A DNA stretch of 39,900 nt, from the sequence record SRR20825010_5116, one strand, 5' to 3'. Shown one piece after another: positions 20,528 to 39,205 of this stretch. Under the pieces are notes generated by a model. That model was not told the DNA's origin. It saw nothing but the letters and a program-made list of their open reading frames with translations, and searched no databases. The position numbers and the translations under genes were made by a program. Positions within the stretch are counted from its first letter, which is position 1, and the number at the start of each line of letters is the position of its first letter.

Positions 20528-22213
20528 ATGTATGATCAGATTAAACAGAATGATGGAATCGTTAAACAATCAAAGAAGAAATCTTCTGCAGAACTAAATC
20601 CATCTTCTCAAAACAGTGCTCTCAAGCAAGCAGACGGTAAAAACGCAGCCAAGTTAACCGCGCTTGCAGATTCATATATAGACAAGAAACATCCTCTACA
20701 GAAAAAAGCAAATCCAAAAGGGATTGAAAAGACAAATAATACAGGTTTACCCGACAAGTTGAAGTCTGGAATTGAAAACCTCTCAGGTTACTCAATGGAT
20801 GATGTGAAGGTGCATTACAATTCTAGCAAGCCCGCGCAATTACAGGCTCATGCGTATGCTCAGGGAAATCAAATTCATTTATCTGCTGGCCAAGAAAAAC
20901 ACCTTCCACATGAAGCTTGGCATGTTGTGCAGCAAAAACAAGGGCGTGTAAGACCTACTTTTCAATTGAAGGAAAATGTGGCAGTTAATGACAACAAATC
21001 CTTGGAAAAAGAGGCTGACGTGATGGGGAAAAGAGCAAATAGTTCAAGTCTCCATACACAACCTTCGGTAAATCAAATTGAGACCAACGAGTCAGGTAAT
21101 ACGATACAACCAAAATGGATACAAGAAAGTGATAGTTTGCTTCGGTGGAATGGGCTGTTGCAAGGTGTACAATGGTACGAAATAATTGATGGGGTTGAAA
21201 AAGGGAAAATGTACTATAAAGTTGTAAATCCAAGAGTTATCCCGCCAGATCATCTTGCTTCATATTTAGAGAATCAAAAGAAACCAATGCAACGAGATTT
21301 CTATTTGGAAAACAGTGAATTTGGAGATCTTTATGGTCAATTGGACTCTCAAGTAATATCAGAAGAAGAAGCTAGAGTAACAGCCCCAGAGAGCTCATTG
21401 ACCGAAGCTTTTTTGCACAAGTACTCAGAACAGTTAACGGAAATAACTAGCAAGGTTGCCGAGATGAAAGGCATAATAACACGTGTTATAGCTGCAGAAA
21501 AACAATATTCCAGCACACATTTTGTTTTCTACCATGCGATGTCTAAAACATCAAGGCTCATGGTTGAATACAACAAAGCTAAAGGTGGTTATGAAAGAGA
21601 CTACCAAAACATAATGCAATATTTTAGAACTCCCGATTTTTTTGTTAGTGAGTCCCGTCCAAACACAGTTGAAGACGCAACAAAGTCACTTTCCGAAAAA
21701 GCAGGAGATCACGGATCAATTAGATCCCATATTATTTCTCTGAGTACTTCATTATTTTCGAATTTCGAGGATATCGGAGAATCTACACTGAATTTCTTTA
21801 TGCAAAACATCAATATTTCTACTCCATGGAAAGATCAATTGGCAGAAAAGTTAAAAGGACCTAAATTTGGGAAGTGGTGGAAAGCCTTCGGGCAGATAGA
21901 AGATGCTGAAGGGCAATCTGGGGATTTAGTTCAGATAATCATTCCAAAAGATATTGCTGAGCAAATCGTACTTGCTACCACGGCAGGAGGTACGCCAGCA
22001 CAAATGCCCATATCGAGTGCTATAAATATTGGCCCTGAAAAGGTTACAACTTCAAAAGGAGAGGAAGAACATTTACAAGGTCGACTTTTGCTTACTAGTG
22101 ATATAACAAAAAAGGTGATGGACGAAATAATTACTAACGTATATTCATTTGGCGAGTTATCAGGCCTAGATGAAAAAATTCAAAAAATGGTTAAAGCTAT
22201 TCCATCTAAATAA
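20528..22213 (+). CDS. DUF4157 (eCIS core) domain protein with an uncharacterised C-terminal putative effector domain
   Basis: NNTGLPDKLKSGIENLSG...VKVHYNS...AHAYAQG..IH...LPHEAWHVVQQ...LEKEAD; ~370 aa variable C-terminus. Confidence 0.88.
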   Translation: MYDQIKQNDGIVKQSKKKSSAELNPSSQNSALKQADGKNAAKLTALADSYIDKKHPLQKKANPKGIEKTNNTGLPDKLKSGIENLSGYSMDDVKVHYNSSKPAQLQAHAYAQGNQIHLSAGQEKHLPHEAWHVVQQKQGRVRPTFQLKENVAVNDNKSLEKEADVMGKRANSSSLHTQPSVNQIETNESGNTIQPKWIQESDSLLRWNGLLQGVQWYEIIDGVEKGKMYYKVVNPRVIPPDHLASYLENQKKPMQRDFYLENSEFGDLYGQLDSQVISEEEARVTAPESSLTEAFLHKYSEQLTEITSKVAEMKGIITRVIAAEKQYSSTHFVFYHAMSKTSRLMVEYNKAKGGYERDYQNIMQYFRTPDFFVSESRPNTVEDATKSLSEKAGDHGSIRSHIISLSTSLFSNFEDIGESTLNFFMQNINISTPWKDQLAEKLKGPKFGKWWKAFGQIEDAEGQSGDLVQIIIPKDIAEQIVLATTAGGTPAQMPISSAINIGPEKVTTSKGEEEHLQGRLLLTSDITKKVMDEIITNVYSFGELSGLDEKIQKMVKAIPSK

Positions 22214-22283
22214 CTTTAGAACCGATAATATCTTTAATGATCGCACTCTACTCCTCCAACGGATAGCTCAAACGTGAATCTTT

Positions 22284-22318
22284 TGCGTCCTTTTCCGCTT
22301 TTTCTCGTCTTTAAGATA
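22284..22318 (+). promoter_or_regulatory. Putative SigZ-dependent promoter 1 (autoregulatory): TGCGTC-N16-CGTC
   Basis: -35 at 22284-22289, -10 at 22306-22309; near-identical copy at 22898. Confidence 0.7.
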
Positions 22319-22342
22319 GTCTGGAACAAATCCATCAACTGA

Positions 22343-22891
22343 ATGAATGACATAATCGAGAATATTTGGAACGACTTCCATAAAGAATTAAAAAAATTCA
22401 TCCTGAAAAAAGTACAGGACGAAGATATTGCCAATGATATTTTACAGGACGTGTTCCTCAAAATAATCGATAATGCGGACAAAATCGCACAAGCCAAAAG
22501 TGTTCAGCAATATATTTATGGAATTGCCCGAAACGTCACCATTGACCATTTTAGAAAATCTGGAAAAAAAACATCCGTAGAAAACGAATACACGCTTATT
22601 TCTGAGGAAGAAACCGATTCTTTGAATGCCACTATCGCACATTGCTGCATCAAACCTTTTATCAAACAGCTTCCTAACAAATACCAAGTAGCACTTACAA
22701 AAACGGAGTTTGAAAATATCAGTCAAAAAGACTTGGCGAAGGAGCTTAATATTTCGTACTCCGGAGCTAAATCAAGGGTTCAAAGAGGAAAAGAACAACT
22801 GAAAGAACTCATCATCGCTTGTTGCAATTTTCCAAGCGACATTTATGGTAATCTTCAACCTACGGAATCCAAAAAATGTAACTGCGATTAA
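22343..22891 (+). CDS. sigZ: ECF sigma factor, SigZ-type, with Cys-rich C-terminal half
   Basis: DILQDVFLK, IARNVTIDHFRK, SQKDLAKELNISYSGAKSRVQRGK; Cys clusters HCC, ACC, KCNCD; no anti-sigma gene adjacent. Confidence 0.9.
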   Translation: MNDIIENIWNDFHKELKKFILKKVQDEDIANDILQDVFLKIIDNADKIAQAKSVQQYIYGIARNVTIDHFRKSGKKTSVENEYTLISEEETDSLNATIAHCCIKPFIKQLPNKYQVALTKTEFENISQKDLAKELNISYSGAKSRVQRGKEQLKELIIACCNFPSDIYGNLQPTESKKCNCD

Positions 22892-22897
22892 TTTTTT

Positions 22898-22931
22898 TGC
22901 GTCTTTTTCTTCTGTCTTGCGTGTTTAGATA
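22898..22931 (+). promoter_or_regulatory. Putative SigZ-dependent promoter 2: TGCGTC-N16-CGTG, upstream of the deacetylase-arsM pair
   Basis: -35 at 22898-22903, -10 at 22920-22923; same spacing and pyrimidine-rich spacer as promoter 1. Confidence 0.7.
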
Positions 22932-22950
22932 AACAGATAAAAAAGACAGA

Positions 22951-23670
22951 ATGAAAATCATGTACATCTTTCCGCATCCTGATGACGAATCATTTGGACC
23001 AGCGGGAGCAATCGACAAGCAAATTAAAGAAGGAAACGAAGTTATTCTTTTGACGCTTACAAAGGGCGGTGCGACAAAAGTGAGACATCAACTTGGATTG
23101 ACCGTTCAGGAAATGGGCGAAGTGAGAGAAAAAGAAATGCGAAAAGTACAAAAGACTTTGCGTATTTCAGAGATGACCGTTTTAGACTACGAAGATGGCG
23201 GACTAGCGAAAATCAACCCGCTCCATCTTGAACGTGAACTACAAAAATGGCTTCAACAATACCAACCCAATGTTGTAGTTACCTATCCCGTTCACGGAGG
23301 TAGCGGACATCACGATCACATTGCGTTGCACCACGTTATCAAGCATTTATTTTTCAGTAAAAAGAACGATCTCCTATTTTGGAAACGACTCGCCTATTTC
23401 ACAGTTGTTGATACGGGACTTCCCATGTTCTTTGAAGGAGGAATGCCAAGAGTTACTTGGACTAAAAAAGAAGATGTTATGGTCACTGAAATGTTAAGCG
23501 ATTCGAACATCAATCAAATGAAAGAAGCTTTGCTTTGCTACGACACGTATCAAGAAATGGTGAAAACCACCAATGTAATTGAAAGAATTGGAGATAAAAC
23601 GTACTTCGAACTCGAAAGTGAAGTACATCCCAAAATGCTCTCATCCATAACTGAATCACTCAATAATTAA
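22951..23670 (+). CDS. PIG-L / LmbE family deacetylase (BshB/MshB/Mca superfamily)
   Basis: PHPDDES, LTKGG, REKEM, GHHDH metal-binding motifs. Confidence 0.9.
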   Translation: MKIMYIFPHPDDESFGPAGAIDKQIKEGNEVILLTLTKGGATKVRHQLGLTVQEMGEVREKEMRKVQKTLRISEMTVLDYEDGGLAKINPLHLERELQKWLQQYQPNVVVTYPVHGGSGHHDHIALHHVIKHLFFSKKNDLLFWKRLAYFTVVDTGLPMFFEGGMPRVTWTKKEDVMVTEMLSDSNINQMKEALLCYDTYQEMVKTTNVIERIGDKTYFELESEVHPKMLSSITESLNN

Positions 23671-23680
23671 ACTCAAAAAA

Positions 23681-24610
23681 ATGACGACAGTAAAAGAAGA
23701 AATCAAAAGATCGTACGGAGAAATTGCAAAAGGAACCATTCAAGTAGGTTGCTGTTCAACGGATACGGAATGTTGCACTACAGGTGAATTTAGCACTTCA
23801 ATGGCTGAAAACTATGACGGCATCGAGGGTTATGAAAAATCCTCTGATTTGTCGCTAGGTTGTGGTCTTCCAACAGAAATAGCCAATATAAACGAAGGAG
23901 ATACCGTTATCGATCTCGGTTCAGGAGCTGGAAATGACGTGTTCATTGCACGCAGAATTGTAGGCGAAACAGGAAAGGTAATTGGCGTTGACAGGACCCC
24001 TGAAATGGTAATCCGTGCTTTACAAAACAACCAAAAATTAGGTTACAAAAACGTGGAGTTTGTGTTGGGTGAAATAGAAAATATGACGGAAATATCAACA
24101 AGTACCGCAGATGTAGTGATCAGCAATTGCGTTATGAACCTCACGCCAGACAAAGAAAAAGCATTTAAAGAAGTTCACAGAGTTTTAAAAGTTGGTGGAC
24201 ATTTCAGTATTTCGGATGTTGTTTCTATCGGGACACTTCCCAATGGGATTTTACAAGCAGCTGAAATGTATGCTGGATGCATCTCTGGAGCCACTGAAAA
24301 AGGAGCCTACTTGGGAATCATCAAGTCTGTTGGATTCAAGAACATTCAAATAAAAAAAGAACGGCTGATTGAATTATCTGACGAGTTACTTCTAAAGTAT
24401 GTGAGTCCAAAAGAATTGAAAAAGTTCAGAAACGCGAATTCGGGAATTTACAGCATTACCGTTTACGCTGACAAATTGGACGAAGGTGCATGCTGCGAGT
24501 CTTCCAACAGTGGATGTTGTGGCAGCGAAACGTCAAAGTCGGAAAAAAATGTAGAATCGAGTTGCTGTACTACTGCATCGGAAAGTAAAAGTTCAAGTTG
24601 TTGTAGTTAA
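23681..24610 (+). CDS. arsM: Arsenite methyltransferase with Cys-rich N- and C-terminal tails
   Basis: GCC, LSLGCGLP, DLGSGAGND, ISNCVMNL and YAGCISGA conserved ArsM cysteine motifs; tail with four CC pairs. Confidence 0.95.
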   Translation: MTTVKEEIKRSYGEIAKGTIQVGCCSTDTECCTTGEFSTSMAENYDGIEGYEKSSDLSLGCGLPTEIANINEGDTVIDLGSGAGNDVFIARRIVGETGKVIGVDRTPEMVIRALQNNQKLGYKNVEFVLGEIENMTEISTSTADVVISNCVMNLTPDKEKAFKEVHRVLKVGGHFSISDVVSIGTLPNGILQAAEMYAGCISGATEKGAYLGIIKSVGFKNIQIKKERLIELSDELLLKYVSPKELKKFRNANSGIYSITVYADKLDEGACCESSNSGCCGSETSKSEKNVESSCCTTASESKSSSCCS

Positions 24611-24798
24611 GTCCACTCAATAGCCATGTATACTTTTCAATTGTTTGGATAAAAACGCGGCTAGTCCTTGTATACTTACTCTATACAATCGCATGCAATT
24701 CACTCATATAAAAACAATTAGATCAAAAAAAAGCGAAGCTTTTTCAAGAAAATTACTCACAATTAAACATTCATTTACTTCAATATAAAGATCAAATT

Positions 24799-25665
24799 AT
24801 GAAACAATTTGTTATCACATTAAACCTCATTTTGTGTTCCGTTTATGGTTATTCACAAGAGTTTTCCTTCAATTTAATCGTTGAAGATGCTATCGGAAAT
24901 ACGGACACATTGATTTTCGGTTATGATGCTACAGCAACAAATGGAATTGACGCTTTTTTCGGAGAAACAAACATTGTATCCACCCCGATTACCACGGCTC
25001 TAGACGTTAGATTCTCGGATGTAATGAAAAACGGCACCTTAACTCCTACACATCAATCGAAAAAGCAAATCATCACCAATGAGTGTCCAAACTGGCTATC
25101 ATCTGATTTTGGAACCTCCATTGAAATTTATTCAAACAATTATCCCGTTACCTTAAAATGGGACAGCGCACAATTCAATGACACGTGCAGAATTGGGACT
25201 ATTCTAACGGATGTTCACCCCGGAGGATGGTTCGATACACAAGGAACTTTTCGAACTTTCTTAGCACAGACGGATAGTGTGACGATTAATTTTCCTCACT
25301 ATGACTACACAAACAGTCAATCTCAAACGATGGGAGTACTTTGGATTTCATTTATGGATACTTCTGTATTTGACATTCCTTTTGATCCCATAATTTTTGA
25401 CCCCAACTGGGCTAATTCTCTTGAAGAGTATAATTCATCTTCACTCCAAATCTACCCGAACCCAGCCGACAACTATGCTACAATTCGTTGCTCAGAAAAA
25501 ATGGAGTCGATCAATATATTTAATAGTTACGGACAACTTGTATATTCACAACTCAAAAATGTAACGAATGAAGTCGATTTATCCTCGCTTACTTCTGGAA
25601 TCTATACAGTCAGAATTAGGACAGAAAATGGATTGATGATTAGACAAAAACTGGTTAAGAAATGA
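24799..25665 (+). CDS. Secreted protein with T9SS type A sorting domain
   Basis: Signal peptide; FGYDATATNGID motif; IYPNPA...IFNSYGQLV...LTSGIY...KLVKK. Confidence 0.88.
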   Translation: MKQFVITLNLILCSVYGYSQEFSFNLIVEDAIGNTDTLIFGYDATATNGIDAFFGETNIVSTPITTALDVRFSDVMKNGTLTPTHQSKKQIITNECPNWLSSDFGTSIEIYSNNYPVTLKWDSAQFNDTCRIGTILTDVHPGGWFDTQGTFRTFLAQTDSVTINFPHYDYTNSQSQTMGVLWISFMDTSVFDIPFDPIIFDPNWANSLEEYNSSSLQIYPNPADNYATIRCSEKMESINIFNSYGQLVYSQLKNVTNEVDLSSLTSGIYTVRIRTENGLMIRQKLVKK

Positions 25666-29079: not shown

Positions 29080-29236
29080 TCATTTCCGCGACATTGCAAG
29101 AAGACGAATACCTATTTCCACCCACCAATAACTGTTTTCAACCAATGGAAATAATCTTGTGAGAAAAAAGCCAAGAATAACTCAACTTTGAGTTCATGAA
29201 TTAAATCATCTTGTTCAGGTGAATTATAGCATAAAA

Positions 29237-29866
29237 ATGAGCGGAAAATCTCAATACAAAGCGGAAAAGTTCTGGGATAGAACGGCAAGCAGCTACGATA
29301 GCGAAGAGAAAAAAGACGAGAAAATCTACTTGCAGATTATTGAACACACTCGAAAATATTTAAAACCGTCCACTACCCTTTTGGATTTCGGTTGCGGAAC
29401 GGGAATAATCACCAATGAACTTGCGAGAAATGTCAGTAACATCGATGGGATTGATTTATCCTCAAAAATGATTGAAATCGCTCGAAGTAAAGCAGAAAAA
29501 GCAGGAATCCAGAATATCAAGTACGCACACACGACCATTCTCGATCCTAACTTAAAGCCAACTTCGTATGATGTCATTGTTTGTTTTTATGTGCTGCATT
29601 TACTCGACGATGCACAAGAAGCAATGCAAAAAATACATTCACTTCTAAAACCTGAAGGAATTTTAATCTCGGTCACTCCATGTATGGCGGAGAAACCGAT
29701 TCAAGGATTTTTGTTTTCTCTTTTGAGTAAAATAGGAATTCTTCCCAAACTAAATTTGCTTAAACGGCGGGACTTAGAACAATTGTCCGAAGCACATTTC
29801 AGTACAATCGAAAGTGAACGTTTGCCAAACACTTCGAATCAATATTTCCTCGTATCAAAAAAGTAG
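29237..29866 (+). CDS. Class I SAM-dependent methyltransferase
   Basis: FWDRTA, LDFGCGTG, GIDLSSKMI, YDVI, LKPEG. Confidence 0.92.
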   Translation: MSGKSQYKAEKFWDRTASSYDSEEKKDEKIYLQIIEHTRKYLKPSTTLLDFGCGTGIITNELARNVSNIDGIDLSSKMIEIARSKAEKAGIQNIKYAHTTILDPNLKPTSYDVIVCFYVLHLLDDAQEAMQKIHSLLKPEGILISVTPCMAEKPIQGFLFSLLSKIGILPKLNLLKRRDLEQLSEAHFSTIESERLPNTSNQYFLVSKK

Positions 29867-29869
29867 TTT

Positions 29870-30559
29870 ATGAATGTAATAAAACGGAATACACGCATCG
29901 CAGGATTGTTGATCATAGCCAGCATGACTACAGGTATTTTCAGTGTCGCTCCTGCTGTTGATTCTCCAGAGTATTTAACGGAAGCTGTGACAAATTCCAA
30001 TCAAGTGATCTTTGGCGCTTTATTTCAGTTTTTAATGGCCATCACTTACGTAGGTGTAGCGGTTTTGTTCTATCCGATTATTAAGCGATTTGGAAAAAGT
30101 CTCGCCATCGGCTTTTTGAGTTTTAGAATCATTGCGGCAACCCTTGTGATTTTCGGAACGATTGTTTTATTGTCCATTTTGGCATTAAGCAAGGCTGCAA
30201 ACGAATCTTTATCTACGAATCACACTAATTTAGAAGCGTTTGGAAATGTTTTAAAATCCACACGAGATTATATAAATCACGTATTCATGATTGTGATTTT
30301 GTGTACTGGAAATATCGCACTTTACATTCTACTGATACGATCAAAACTCATTCCACGATGGATTTCAATTGCAGGAATAGTTGGTGCCTTTTTGTCTATT
30401 ATCGCCAGCTTTTTGGTTTTATTTGGCACGATAGAAATCATTACACCTGAGTACCTACTTTTGAATGCACCCACAGGGCTGATAGAACTTGTTTTTGGAA
30501 TCTGGCTAATTATTAAAGGTGTGGATCAAAAAATGACAGTTCTAAACACAATCAAATAG
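29870..30559 (+). CDS. DUF4386-type membrane protein
   Basis: About six TM helices; RIAGLL start, SKLIPRWIS and E....IWLIIKG motifs. Confidence 0.8.
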   Translation: MNVIKRNTRIAGLLIIASMTTGIFSVAPAVDSPEYLTEAVTNSNQVIFGALFQFLMAITYVGVAVLFYPIIKRFGKSLAIGFLSFRIIAATLVIFGTIVLLSILALSKAANESLSTNHTNLEAFGNVLKSTRDYINHVFMIVILCTGNIALYILLIRSKLIPRWISIAGIVGAFLSIIASFLVLFGTIEIITPEYLLLNAPTGLIELVFGIWLIIKGVDQKMTVLNTIK

Positions 30560-30625
30560 ATGAAAAGGTACGTACTCAACTGTTTTCTCTTGCCATTCCT
30601 ATCCGTGCATAGAATATTTTCTTGA
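30560..30625 (+). pseudogene. Possible 5' remnant of a decayed membrane-protein gene
   Basis: ATG directly after the DUF4386 stop; reads MKRYVLNCFLL, then with a frameshift IPIRA*NIFL. Confidence 0.3.
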
Positions 30626-30721
30626 GAATACCGCTGAGTATTTCAACAACTACCCTACTTTTTTTTTCCTTTCATAATATTCACGCTTTTACTATCTATT
30701 TTAGGACTTATTAATTAAAAC

Positions 30722-31324
30722 ATGGAATTCGAAGAGGAAAAATACATTTCGGAGTTAAAAAAAAGGTTTAACAGCTATTCTCCGATCTCGGAAGAATCTT
30801 GGCTTCAAGTGCGATCGATTCTTCAATTTCAGTCTGTGAAAAAGGGTGAAATGATATTGAGAGCAGGACAAACCGCCAAAAACATGCACTTTATTTGCAA
30901 AGGTGTATTGCGAACATTCTATTCCGATGCGCATGGAAATGTGTACACCAAAAATCTCTTTTTTGAAAATAGTTTTCCCGCGTCCAAGGTTTCGTTGCTC
31001 CAAAACGCGCCTTCCAACTTCTCGATTGAAGCATTGGAAGATTCCATTTTAATCAACTTTAGGTTTGAAGATTATAAGAAGTTGATTCGTGAAAAAGACG
31101 ATTTAAAGGATTTCTACATCGCCTACATCGAGCAAAATTGGATCATTGAAAAAGAACAAAAGGAAATATCGTTAGTCATGGAAAACGCAAGCGAACGATA
31201 CGTAAAACTCCTCCAAAAACATCCGAACATAGAAAAACAAATCTCTCAGCATCATCTCGCTTCTCATATAGGAATTACACCTACTCAGTTAAGTAGAATT
31301 AGAAAAGCACTAAAAAATAGCTAA
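30722..31324 (+). CDS. Crp/Fnr family transcriptional regulator
   Basis: cNMP-binding-like HFICKGVLR; ASERY; LASHIGITPTQLSRIRK HTH. Confidence 0.93.
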   Translation: MEFEEEKYISELKKRFNSYSPISEESWLQVRSILQFQSVKKGEMILRAGQTAKNMHFICKGVLRTFYSDAHGNVYTKNLFFENSFPASKVSLLQNAPSNFSIEALEDSILINFRFEDYKKLIREKDDLKDFYIAYIEQNWIIEKEQKEISLVMENASERYVKLLQKHPNIEKQISQHHLASHIGITPTQLSRIRKALKNS

Positions 31325-33204: not shown

Positions 33205-33651
33205 ATGAATTGGATTAATAAAATCGAGTTAAGAAAAATGGTTGTGTCTGGCGTTCCTTATTTGTGGAAAAGAGGACATTACCATTTACCCGAATTTGAA
33301 CATTCCGAATGTGTAGAAAAGGTGATCATTTATCTTGAAGGATTTAAAAATTCACCTCTTCAGTTATTGTTCCGCGAGGAAGACAATTTGACCTTAAAGA
33401 AGGACGTCACACAAGAAAAATGGTGCGTCGGTTATCCAGAAAATGGCGTGATTTGGTTATTTAAACAGCAATCTGCCCAGAAACCTTCCTTGGAACATCT
33501 TGAAGTAAATTTAAATCGACCTGCCGTCATTTCTAAACTCATAGCACATTTCATGGGGAATGAATGGAAACCAAAAGAAAGCACTAAGCCTCTCGTTATT
33601 GAAGATGCTTTGAAGTATTTGGAATTAATTGATCTCCCCAAAGGCAGTTGA
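33205..33651 (+). CDS. Hypothetical protein
   Basis: 148 aa ATG ORF; no family recognised. Confidence 0.7.
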   Translation: MNWINKIELRKMVVSGVPYLWKRGHYHLPEFEHSECVEKVIIYLEGFKNSPLQLLFREEDNLTLKKDVTQEKWCVGYPENGVIWLFKQQSAQKPSLEHLEVNLNRPAVISKLIAHFMGNEWKPKESTKPLVIEDALKYLELIDLPKGS

Positions 33652-38626: not shown

Positions 38627-39205
38627 ATGGAAAATAAACTGATCAGCTATTTTTTAAAAATAACCAACTTAACGGAAGAAGAAATCAATGTTCTAACCGA
38701 AGGTATGATCGTAAGAAAATTCACCAAAGGCAGTTATATTGTAACGGAAGGACAGTTCAACAATGACACATTTTTCATTCTAGACGGACTTGTACGACAA
38801 CATAAAATAGTTGATGGAAATGATATAACGACAAACTTTTACTCCGAAGAACAATGGATTATTTCACTGGAAAACTTTGAAAAAAAAACACCTTCAAAGT
38901 ATTCTTTGATCTGCGTTGAAGACAGCACGGTTGTTACTGGAAACGAGCAAAAGGCGCAAGAGTTATTTAAACAATTCCCGCGATTCGAGACAATTTCACG
39001 ACAAATTATGGAAACTGTTTTTATGGAGCAACAAGATTTAATGACCTCGTATATTACTGACAAACCCGAAGTTCGTTATTTGAAATTATTAAAATCAAGA
39101 CCCGATATTTTTCAACGAGTTCCCCAATACGACATTGCGACTTACATTGGCGTAAAACCAGAATCATTGAGCAGAATCAGGAAGAAATTACAAACCAAAG
39201 GCTAA
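38627..39205 (+). CDS. Crp/Fnr family transcriptional regulator
   Basis: FFILDGLVR, PEVRY, VPQYDIATYIGVKPESLSRIRK. Confidence 0.93.
   Translation: MENKLISYFLKITNLTEEEINVLTEGMIVRKFTKGSYIVTEGQFNNDTFFILDGLVRQHKIVDGNDITTNFYSEEQWIISLENFEKKTPSKYSLICVEDSTVVTGNEQKAQELFKQFPRFETISRQIMETVFMEQQDLMTSYITDKPEVRYLKLLKSRPDIFQRVPQYDIATYIGVKPESLSRIRKKLQTKG

Follow-up and report, generated by a model that had tools for sequence, protein, structure and literature searches.

What switches on arsenic methylation at a locus where a sigma factor gene stands in the place of the usual repressor gene? The ars genes are the textbook case of control by an ArsR repressor. In the DNA stretch SRR20825010_5116 (39,900 nucleotides (nt); hereafter the window, meaning the whole stretch that was analysed), the gene for an arsenite methyltransferase, arsM, is preceded by a gene for a PIG-L-family enzyme and, upstream of both, by sigZ, which encodes a cysteine-rich extracytoplasmic function (ECF) sigma factor of the SigZ type. 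A sequence-only reading of this locus had proposed that the sigma factor activates its own gene and arsM in direct response to an arsenical. From a comparison of related loci, it appears very probable that this sigma factor transcribes arsM from a promoter motif, a second copy of which precedes sigZ itself. For the whole model, which includes direct sensing of the arsenical by the sigma factor, we put the probability at about one half.

Three co-oriented genes had been recognised at this place, and all three open reading frames (ORFs) do lie on the plus strand (Table 1). The sigZ product passes the cut-off of the SigZ model TIGR02959 (171.3 bits, cut-off 168.65) and stays under that of a second SigZ model, NF007215 (191, cut-off 212); Sigma70_r2 and r4_2 are its sole sigma domains, the architecture of an ECF sigma factor. 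The arsM product scores 300.8 bits with the arsenite methyltransferase model NF008823 (cut-off 263) and carries a class I S-adenosylmethionine (SAM) methyltransferase domain (Methyltransf_31, E-value 5e-36). Genes for an eCIS_core protein and for the PIG-L enzyme flank sigZ. The sequence-only reading had found no arsR, arsC, acr3 or anti-sigma gene in the window, and a Pfam scan agrees: ArsR/HTH_5, HTH_20, ArsC/LMWPc, Acr3/SBF, ArsB and anti-sigma domains are all missing from 44 window ORFs, namely 43 of the 55 that reach at least 90 amino acids (aa) and one of 82 aa, the 12 omitted being overlapping or antisense frames. The sole small helix-turn-helix regulators in the window are the products of two MarR genes, some 14-19 kilobases from the module. 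The absence of arsR is a statement about these 39,900 nt, and the organism may carry the gene elsewhere.

Table 1. Genes and predicted promoters of the sigZ module (window coordinates)
Feature	Position	Strand	Description and basis
sigZ	22343-22891	+	182 aa; ECF sigma factor, SigZ/ECF238 type; NCBIfam TIGR02959 and Pfam matches
PIG-L/LmbE-family metal-dependent deacetylase or amidase	22951-23670	+	239 aa; PF02585, E-value 7e-30
arsM, arsenite methyltransferase	23681-24610	+	309 aa; NF008823 match
Predicted SigZ-dependent promoter of sigZ	22284-22309	+	motif, shuffle test, comparison across loci
Predicted SigZ-dependent internal promoter of PIG-L-arsM	22898-22923	+	motif and comparison across loci

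The pairing of sigZ with arsM recurs in distant bacteria. An alignment of SigZ homologues was searched against one genome per species, which gave 499 confirmed relatives, and the best 80 were analysed. In 46 of these 80 loci the next downstream gene on the same strand encodes an ArsM homologue, mostly after a gap of 44-130 nt, and the 46 loci are spread over six phyla (Bacteroidota, Acidobacteriota, Ignavibacteriota, Chloroflexota, Pseudomonadota and Krumholzibacteriota). When the 835 neighbouring ORFs were clustered, only the sigZ and arsM families proved to be widely shared. In a tree of the SigZ proteins, from which three rows with stops in the crude translation were excluded, arsM-linked rows fall on either side of the midpoint and are interleaved with unlinked ones, the linkage state changing 16 times against a mean of about 26 after shuffling; the Bacillaceae SigZ proteins are nested among the arsM-linked sigmas. 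Of the trio singled out by the sequence-only reading, it is thus the sigZ-arsM pair that is conserved and not the PIG-L gene, which lies between the two in 6 of the 46 pairs, all from Bacteroidota close to the window. Cultured carriers among the loci are Roseivirga echinicomitans KMM 6058 with the full trio (L003), Marivirga aurantiaca S37H4 (L006), Nubsella zeaxanthinifaciens TDMA-5 (L012) and Aquimarina sp. Aq78 (L041). With this count, PIG-L was rejected as a conserved core member of the module.

The matching promoter-like motifs that had been noticed before sigZ and before the PIG-L-arsM pair have the form TGCGTC-N16-CGT(C/G) and begin at 22284 and 22898. The first consists of a -35 element TGCGTC (22284-22289), a T-rich spacer of 16 nt and a -10 element CGTC (22306-22309), 34 nt 5' of the sigZ ATG. 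The internal copy begins 7 nt past the sigZ stop codon, with TGCGTC at 22898-22903, again a spacer of 16 nt, and CGTG at 22920-22923, 28 nt 5' of the PIG-L ATG. A -35 element followed by a T-rich spacer of 16 nt and a CGT-type -10 element is, judged by sequence, the layout of an ECF promoter. The pattern TGCGTC-N15-17-CGT has three matches in the window, against 0.33 expected, a number reached in none of 100 shuffles; the third match, at 33424, lies within an ORF. A scan of positions 22000-25000 for sigma-70-type promoters and terminators returned fewer promoter-like sites than shuffled sequences did and none at the two motifs, as expected of an ECF promoter.

The same motif accompanies the gene pair across the loci compared. 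Between sigZ and arsM (or PIG-L), its strict form is found in 32 of the 46 loci, and in 42 when the -10 element is relaxed. Within 150 nt upstream of sigZ the corresponding figures are 43 and 49 out of 78 loci, and in the loci without arsM the strict motif occurs within 300 nt past the sigZ stop in 17 of 34. Upstream of other ORFs it is rare (2 of 573; 4 of 573 with the relaxed -10). The consensus reads tTTGCGTCtTTTT-N11-CGTCtt, with a spacer of 16 nt in 66 cases and of 15 nt in 29, while the flanking sequence is unconserved between phyla. Of 13 metagenome loci that carry close homologues of the PIG-L gene, 9 have the motif as well. The extended pattern TGCGTCYTTT-N11-13-CGTS was then scanned through the whole genomes of five relatives that carry the trio: it has nine matches, and all nine lie at the sigZ locus, as compared with three matches for a reversed control pattern. 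One of the five genomes has no match, its own copies of the motif being deviant. The predicted regulon is thus sigZ and the PIG-L-arsM unit. Linkage in 46 of 80 loci, a shared promoter of ECF type and its confinement to the locus in relatives' genomes together argue, by sequence comparison, for the earlier proposal that the sigma factor would activate itself and arsM.

Two further observations concern these intergenic regions. In one locus (L001; G001:C4, ~315793-316708), three copies of the motif are found around sigZ. In seven loci (L006, L007, L012, L013, L016, L017 and L026) a conserved element, caAATGGCgatgttGCCATtt, forms a 7-bp inverted repeat with a loop of 6 nt, situated after an AGTG-type -10 element and before the start of arsM or PIG-L. 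It could be the operator of a second regulator or a hairpin in the 5' untranslated region. This inverted repeat does not occur in the window.

What ordinarily occupies the position of sigZ can be seen from 20 arsM loci that do not adjoin sigZ, taken from a sample of Bacteroidota (L098-L117); a SigZ-like gene is present elsewhere in the genome for nine of them and lacking for eleven. An ArsR-family gene lies upstream of arsM in 18 of the 20, in one case separated from it by an arsC-type gene, and the SigZ motif stands upstream of arsM in none of the 20. This is the arrangement of the arsRMC operon, and the sigma factor gene therefore holds the usual position of arsR. Most of the ArsR proteins concerned have Cys-Cys at their C-terminal end. 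An AT-rich palindrome, aatcgcaatattgcgataat, which resembles an ArsR operator, occurs in several of the intergenic regions. The idea that SigZ relatives generally act in trans on unlinked arsM genes was rejected, the motif being absent upstream of arsM in all nine sampled genomes with a SigZ-like gene elsewhere.

Taking the place of ArsR before arsM does not make the module independent of ArsR, as the sequence-only reading had it. In three of the five trio-carrying relatives, Acr3 is encoded elsewhere, in operons of the form arsR-DUF6428-(a protein of about 210 aa, weakly ArsC-like)-acr3. In four other loci such arsR-acr3 operons adjoin sigZ: in two of them (L032, L042) the arsR-DUF6428-ArsC-like-acr3 operon ends in sigZ, and in the other two (L074, L078) an arsR-acr3 operon is convergent on sigZ-arsM. 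The description of a compact one-component detoxification system is not supported by these findings either; the co-occurrence makes the module look like an addition to ArsR-controlled efflux and not a replacement for it. In two loci (L052, L056) the gene of an ArsP_1 permease follows sigZ. The recurrence of arsR, acr3 and arsP near sigZ strengthens the arsenic theme. The protein of about 210 aa in these ars operons (L081-L083, L032, L042, L074, L078) has no Pfam match and a weak, partial match (47 bits) to ArsC of the thioredoxin type.

Could the sigma factor itself be the sensor? The three cysteine clusters on which this suggestion was founded, HCC, ACC and a terminal KCNCD, are present as H100-C101-C102, A159-C160-C161 and K178-C179-N180-C181-D182. 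The pair C101-C102 lies between sigma2 and sigma4, and C160, C161, C179 and C181 fall within the last 23 residues. Across 23 aligned homologues, C102, C160 and C161 never vary, while C101, C179 and C181 are kept in at least 90%. Among 45 arsM-linked SigZ proteins, the pair equivalent to C160-C161 is kept in all 45, a linker cysteine in 38 and at least two tail cysteines in 40. An AlphaFold2 model of the protein has a predicted local distance difference test score (pLDDT) of 80, the tail being of low confidence.

According to the ECF classification, group ECF238 holds both the SigZ of Bacillus subtilis (subgroup 9, ECF238s9) and CorE2 of Myxococcus xanthus (subgroup 15), and it is described there as Cys-rich, without an anti-sigma factor and putatively regulated by metals. 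The main text of Rhodius et al. (2013) has no entry for ECF24 or ECF44. The analogy with CorE drawn in the sequence-only reading is therefore closer than was first claimed, since ECF238 takes in both SigZ and CorE2. The window protein displays the features of this group: a Cys-rich C-terminal extension of about 20 aa, the linker cysteines that some members have, and no associated anti-sigma gene among the 44 window ORFs, an unlinked partner being possible. Nor does an anti-sigma gene adjoin sigZ in the window or in any of the 46 sigZ-arsM pairs. The activation of CorE2 by Cd or Zn is reported to require the C-terminal Cys-rich domain and the CxC of the linker, with no anti-sigma factor involved, and a single Cys change to shift its specificity to Cu. 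The As(III) site of AfArsR and CgArsR is, for its part, described as a vicinal Cys pair plus a third Cys. With these precedents, direct gating of the sigma factor by As(III), or by the methylated trivalent form MAs(III), would be a reasonable inference by analogy.

The enzyme at the end of the module has the features of an arsenite methyltransferase. The best solved relatives of the window ArsM are the arsenite methyltransferases 5evj and 4fr0, and its residues C61, C150 and C200 align with the As(III)-binding positions in the GCG, SNCV and GCxxGA motifs of 5evj, the As(III)-binding cysteines being assigned with reference to the residues of CmArsM. All 46 sigZ-linked ArsM homologues keep C24, C150 and C200, and 43 of them keep C61. 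The arsR-linked arsM products of other Bacteroidota are about 50% identical to it over the full length.

The role of the PIG-L protein is less clear-cut. Its translation keeps the metal-binding motifs HPDD and HHDH, by which, as by its fold family, it belongs with BshB1, BshB2/Bca, MshB and Mca. It was nevertheless rejected as any one of these, for it scores 39.5 bits with BshB1 (cut-off 182.5), 58.9 with BshB2 (195.25), 40.8 with MshB (224.35) and 61.6 with Mca (277.15). Scores so far under the equivalog cut-offs indicate a separate subfamily, a distant paralogue of BshB and Mca. Of 13 metagenome loci with close homologues of this gene, six have sigZ, PIG-L and arsM, three are short contigs with sigZ and PIG-L, one has the motif and PIG-L only, and three lack sigZ and arsM; by this survey the close homologues are found almost only in the sigZ-arsM module. 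BshC and a true BshB1, both over the cut-off, are encoded elsewhere in all five trio-carrying relatives, from which it follows that the host lineage, by its gene content, makes bacillithiol. The PIG-L gene is thus, on genomic grounds, a lineage-specific insert in bacillithiol-making bacteria, and we suggest with low confidence that its product, recruited to the module, is a deacetylase or conjugate amidase with a role related to bacillithiol. In L001, a 206-aa ORF and a partial PIG-L match (124 aa) lie between sigZ and arsM, which suggests a PIG-L gene that has been rearranged or is decaying.

After arsM, other lineages have a gene for a C-S lyase of the PatB type, for a MerT-like or for a PAP2-like protein. 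The MerT-like transporter gene occupies this place in four loci, and genes for a thioredoxin-like and an AhpC-like protein are neighbours of sigZ or arsM in some. Judged by their predicted families, the common thread of the module's extra genes is thiol supply or the processing of thiol conjugates. In four loci (L041, L043, L050, L076) the PatB-family C-S lyase (TIGR04350, over the cut-off) is encoded downstream of sigZ-arsM, accompanied, in different loci, by a PAP2-like protein, by a protein of about 215 aa that belongs to no family, or by both. A DsbD_TM-like membrane protein is also encoded in L043 and L063.

The loci of Bacillus, Niallia and Paenibacillus (L037, L065, L069) present a different arrangement. 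Here TGCGTC-N16-CGTC is found on the minus strand, about 45-60 nt upstream of sigZ, where it faces not sigZ but a divergent gene for an aldo-keto reductase, which we take to be yrpG. According to a review, yrpG is one of the only two targets that have been suggested for sigma-Z in B. subtilis. The lack of a motif directed at sigZ in these loci fits reports that the transcription of sigZ in B. subtilis is not directed by SigZ itself. From its sequence, the motif would give sigma-Z of the B. subtilis type a candidate promoter and a candidate target.

The model that we favour can now be set out. A sigma factor of the SigZ type (ECF238, CorE-like) would replace ArsR in front of arsM and recognise a promoter of the type tTTGCGTCtTTTT-N11-CGTC(t)t. 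The copy before its own gene would provide positive feedback, and the copy directly past the sigZ stop would direct transcription of PIG-L-arsM. Having no anti-sigma partner, the sigma factor would stay inactive until its thiols bind a trivalent arsenical, namely As(III) or else MAs(III), with the vicinal pair C160-C161, the CxC of the C-terminus and the cysteines of the linker as candidate ligands; the arsenical would thus act on it as Cd or Zn does on CorE2 and Cu on CorE. The activated sigma factor would bring about expression of ArsM and hence methylation of As(III), while the co-transcribed PIG-L enzyme probably supplies or recycles a low-molecular-weight thiol, as a deacetylase or as an S-conjugate amidase. 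The module would work beside an ArsR-controlled acr3 efflux operon, not instead of it. We advance more tentatively, at somewhat less than even odds, the generalisation that SigZ-type (ECF238) sigmas are widespread one-protein sensors of trivalent arsenicals, of the activator type, which would hold the arsenical on a vicinal Cys pair together with cysteines of the tail or linker and then transcribe their own gene and arsM.

Several observations weigh against this model. The known sigmas of this kind respond to Cu (CorE) and to Cd or Zn (CorE2), and neither to arsenic. In the place of the essential CxC of CorE and CorE2, the linker has CC in the window sigma and a single C in most relatives, and the tail of the window sigma has four cysteines (CC...CxC) in the last 23 residues as against six in the 28-38 residues of the CorE type. 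A linker cysteine is missing from 7 of the 45 arsM-linked sigmas, and five of them have fewer than two tail cysteines; all three Cys features are combined in 34 of these 45 and in 19 of 32 unlinked sigmas, a modest excess. As regards the promoter, the ECF classification states that promoter motifs are not conserved in ECF238 and that the group is not autoregulated, the group as defined there being wider than the 80 loci used here. Of 201 evenly sampled Bacteroidota genomes, 84 encode an ArsM that exceeds the cut-off and about 27 yield a strong SigZ-like match, and just three have the two genes adjacent, by their coordinates. The family is, moreover, not specific to arsenic, since 34 of the 80 SigZ loci have other downstream genes; these include genes for PhzF, a protein of the metallo-beta-lactamase fold, a histidine kinase and, in L055, CysE/CysK. 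On a rival reading, the sigma factor drives arsM while its cysteines sense another thiophilic ion (Cd, Zn, Cu, Hg or Sb) or general thiol/disulfide stress, and the methylation of arsenic would then be one part of a wider response to soft metals or to thiol stress. The ease with which one Cys change redirects an ECF238 member among Cu, Cd and Zn, the MerT-like, CysE/CysK, thioredoxin-like, AhpC-like and PatB C-S lyase neighbours in some loci, and the same cysteines in unlinked family members (CC in 28 of 32) all speak for it. We still regard it as unlikely, if worth keeping in view, because the dominant partner, and the one that spans phyla, is arsM, at the place of ArsR in ordinary arsM operons, because arsR, acr3 and arsP recur beside sigZ, and because a regulon that apparently comprises just sigZ and PIG-L-arsM in the trio-carrying relatives fits a dedicated response better.

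It seems rather improbable that the sigma factor is not gated by a ligand at all, its cysteines being structural (for instance a zinc site) and control being exerted by an unlinked anti-sigma factor, proteolysis or ArsR, in which case the sigma would merely amplify a signal. ArsR could indeed control sigZ in L032 and L042, where sigZ ends the arsR operon; in seven loci the 7-bp inverted repeat that follows the -10 element, before arsM, is a possible operator; and low-level expression without a phenotype is reported for the SigZ of B. subtilis. Yet the window lacks that inverted repeat, no anti-sigma gene stands beside sigZ in it or in the 46 pairs, as none is associated with ECF238 according to its description, and the conserved cysteines occupy the positions of the functionally essential ones in CorE2. 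The substrate of the methyltransferase might also be something other than arsenic, such as another metalloid (Sb, Se or Te) or a thiol compound that the PIG-L enzyme makes or sets free, in which case the module would be no arsenic system. With PIG-L, a C-S lyase and PAP2 as neighbours, the gene context does point to small-molecule thiol chemistry, but we think it quite improbable in view of a score over the NCBI arsenite-methyltransferase cut-off, of nearest solved structures that are all arsenite methyltransferases, of As(III)-binding cysteines conserved in 43-46 of 46 homologues, and of the full-length identity of about 50% to arsR-linked arsM of Bacteroidota. Finally, many loci come from metagenome-assembled genomes of related Bacteroidota and the 80 loci were picked by similarity to the query, so adjacency and repeated motif might be put down to coincidence or to the recent common descent of a few genomes. 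This is hardly credible for a pair that spans six phyla and falls on either side of the SigZ tree's midpoint, with a motif that is conserved while its flanks vary, a background of 2 in 573, and nine of nine genome-wide matches at the sigZ locus.

Some neighbours of the module in the window may be mentioned separately. Just 5' of it, on the plus strand at 20528-22213, lies the eCIS_core gene, which encodes a 561-aa protein whose N-terminal domain is eCIS_core (DUF4157-type) and whose long C-terminal part is unannotated; it is not conserved along with the module. Downstream, at 29219-31324 (plus strand), come in turn a second SAM methyltransferase (215 aa), a DUF4386 membrane protein and a regulator that binds cyclic nucleotide monophosphates (cNMP). 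A further cNMP-binding protein is encoded at 38627-39205 (plus strand), and such proteins recur near sigZ elsewhere (cluster c2: 11 ORFs in 10 loci).

If SigZ-type sigmas are indeed a widespread class of sensors for trivalent arsenicals, they would be the first arsenic sensors that do not belong to the ArsR family and the first sigma factors gated by a metalloid, and the orphan sigma-Z of Bacillus would gain a promoter, TGCGTC-N16-CGTC, and a likely role in defence against thiophilic toxicants. A sigma factor in the place of ArsR before arsM in six phyla would add a route of positive control to arsenic methylation, a process that controls the speciation of arsenic in soils, in sediments and in rice paddies. 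The CorE-type mechanism, in which the sigma factor is the metal sensor, would be extended from Cu, Cd and Zn to a metalloid, and a large ECF group described as having no conserved promoter would gain a defined one. With its very small predicted regulon and no partner protein, the system would make an appealing orthogonal component of arsenic biosensors. Already known are the ECF238 group, with its cysteines and its lack of an anti-sigma factor, and the mechanism of CorE. A literature search, most subscription journals lying outside it, found nothing that links the SigZ/ECF238 family to arsM; what seems new relative to the CorE-type metal-sensing sigmas is the arsM output and the exchange of regulator with respect to ArsR.

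Three known systems help to place the module. The SigZ of B. subtilis (TIGR02959; ECF238s9) belongs to the family whose cut-off the window sigma also exceeds, but in the Bacillaceae loci, unlike the window, arsM is lacking, as are tail cysteines after the CC pair and a motif upstream of sigZ. The arsRMC operon, characterised in Arsenicibacter rosenii SM-1, shares with the module the effector gene arsM, a regulator gene directly upstream and co-oriented, and a regulator rich in cysteine pairs. It differs in that ArsR is a repressor released by As(III), whereas here a sigma factor would exert positive control through a promoter class of its own, and no ArsR/SmtB gene stands beside the operon in the window. 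CorE and CorE2 of M. xanthus (formerly ECF44, now ECF238) are the third: like the window sigma, they are ECF sigmas with no anti-sigma factor, with a short Cys-rich C-terminal extension and cysteines between sigma2 and sigma4.2, and with adjacent metal-handling genes as targets. Their output is a gene for Cu or Cd/Zn efflux or for an oxidase, in the place of an arsenite methyltransferase, and the autoregulation of CorE is reported to be partial, whereas the predicted self-promoter is conserved in the SigZ module.

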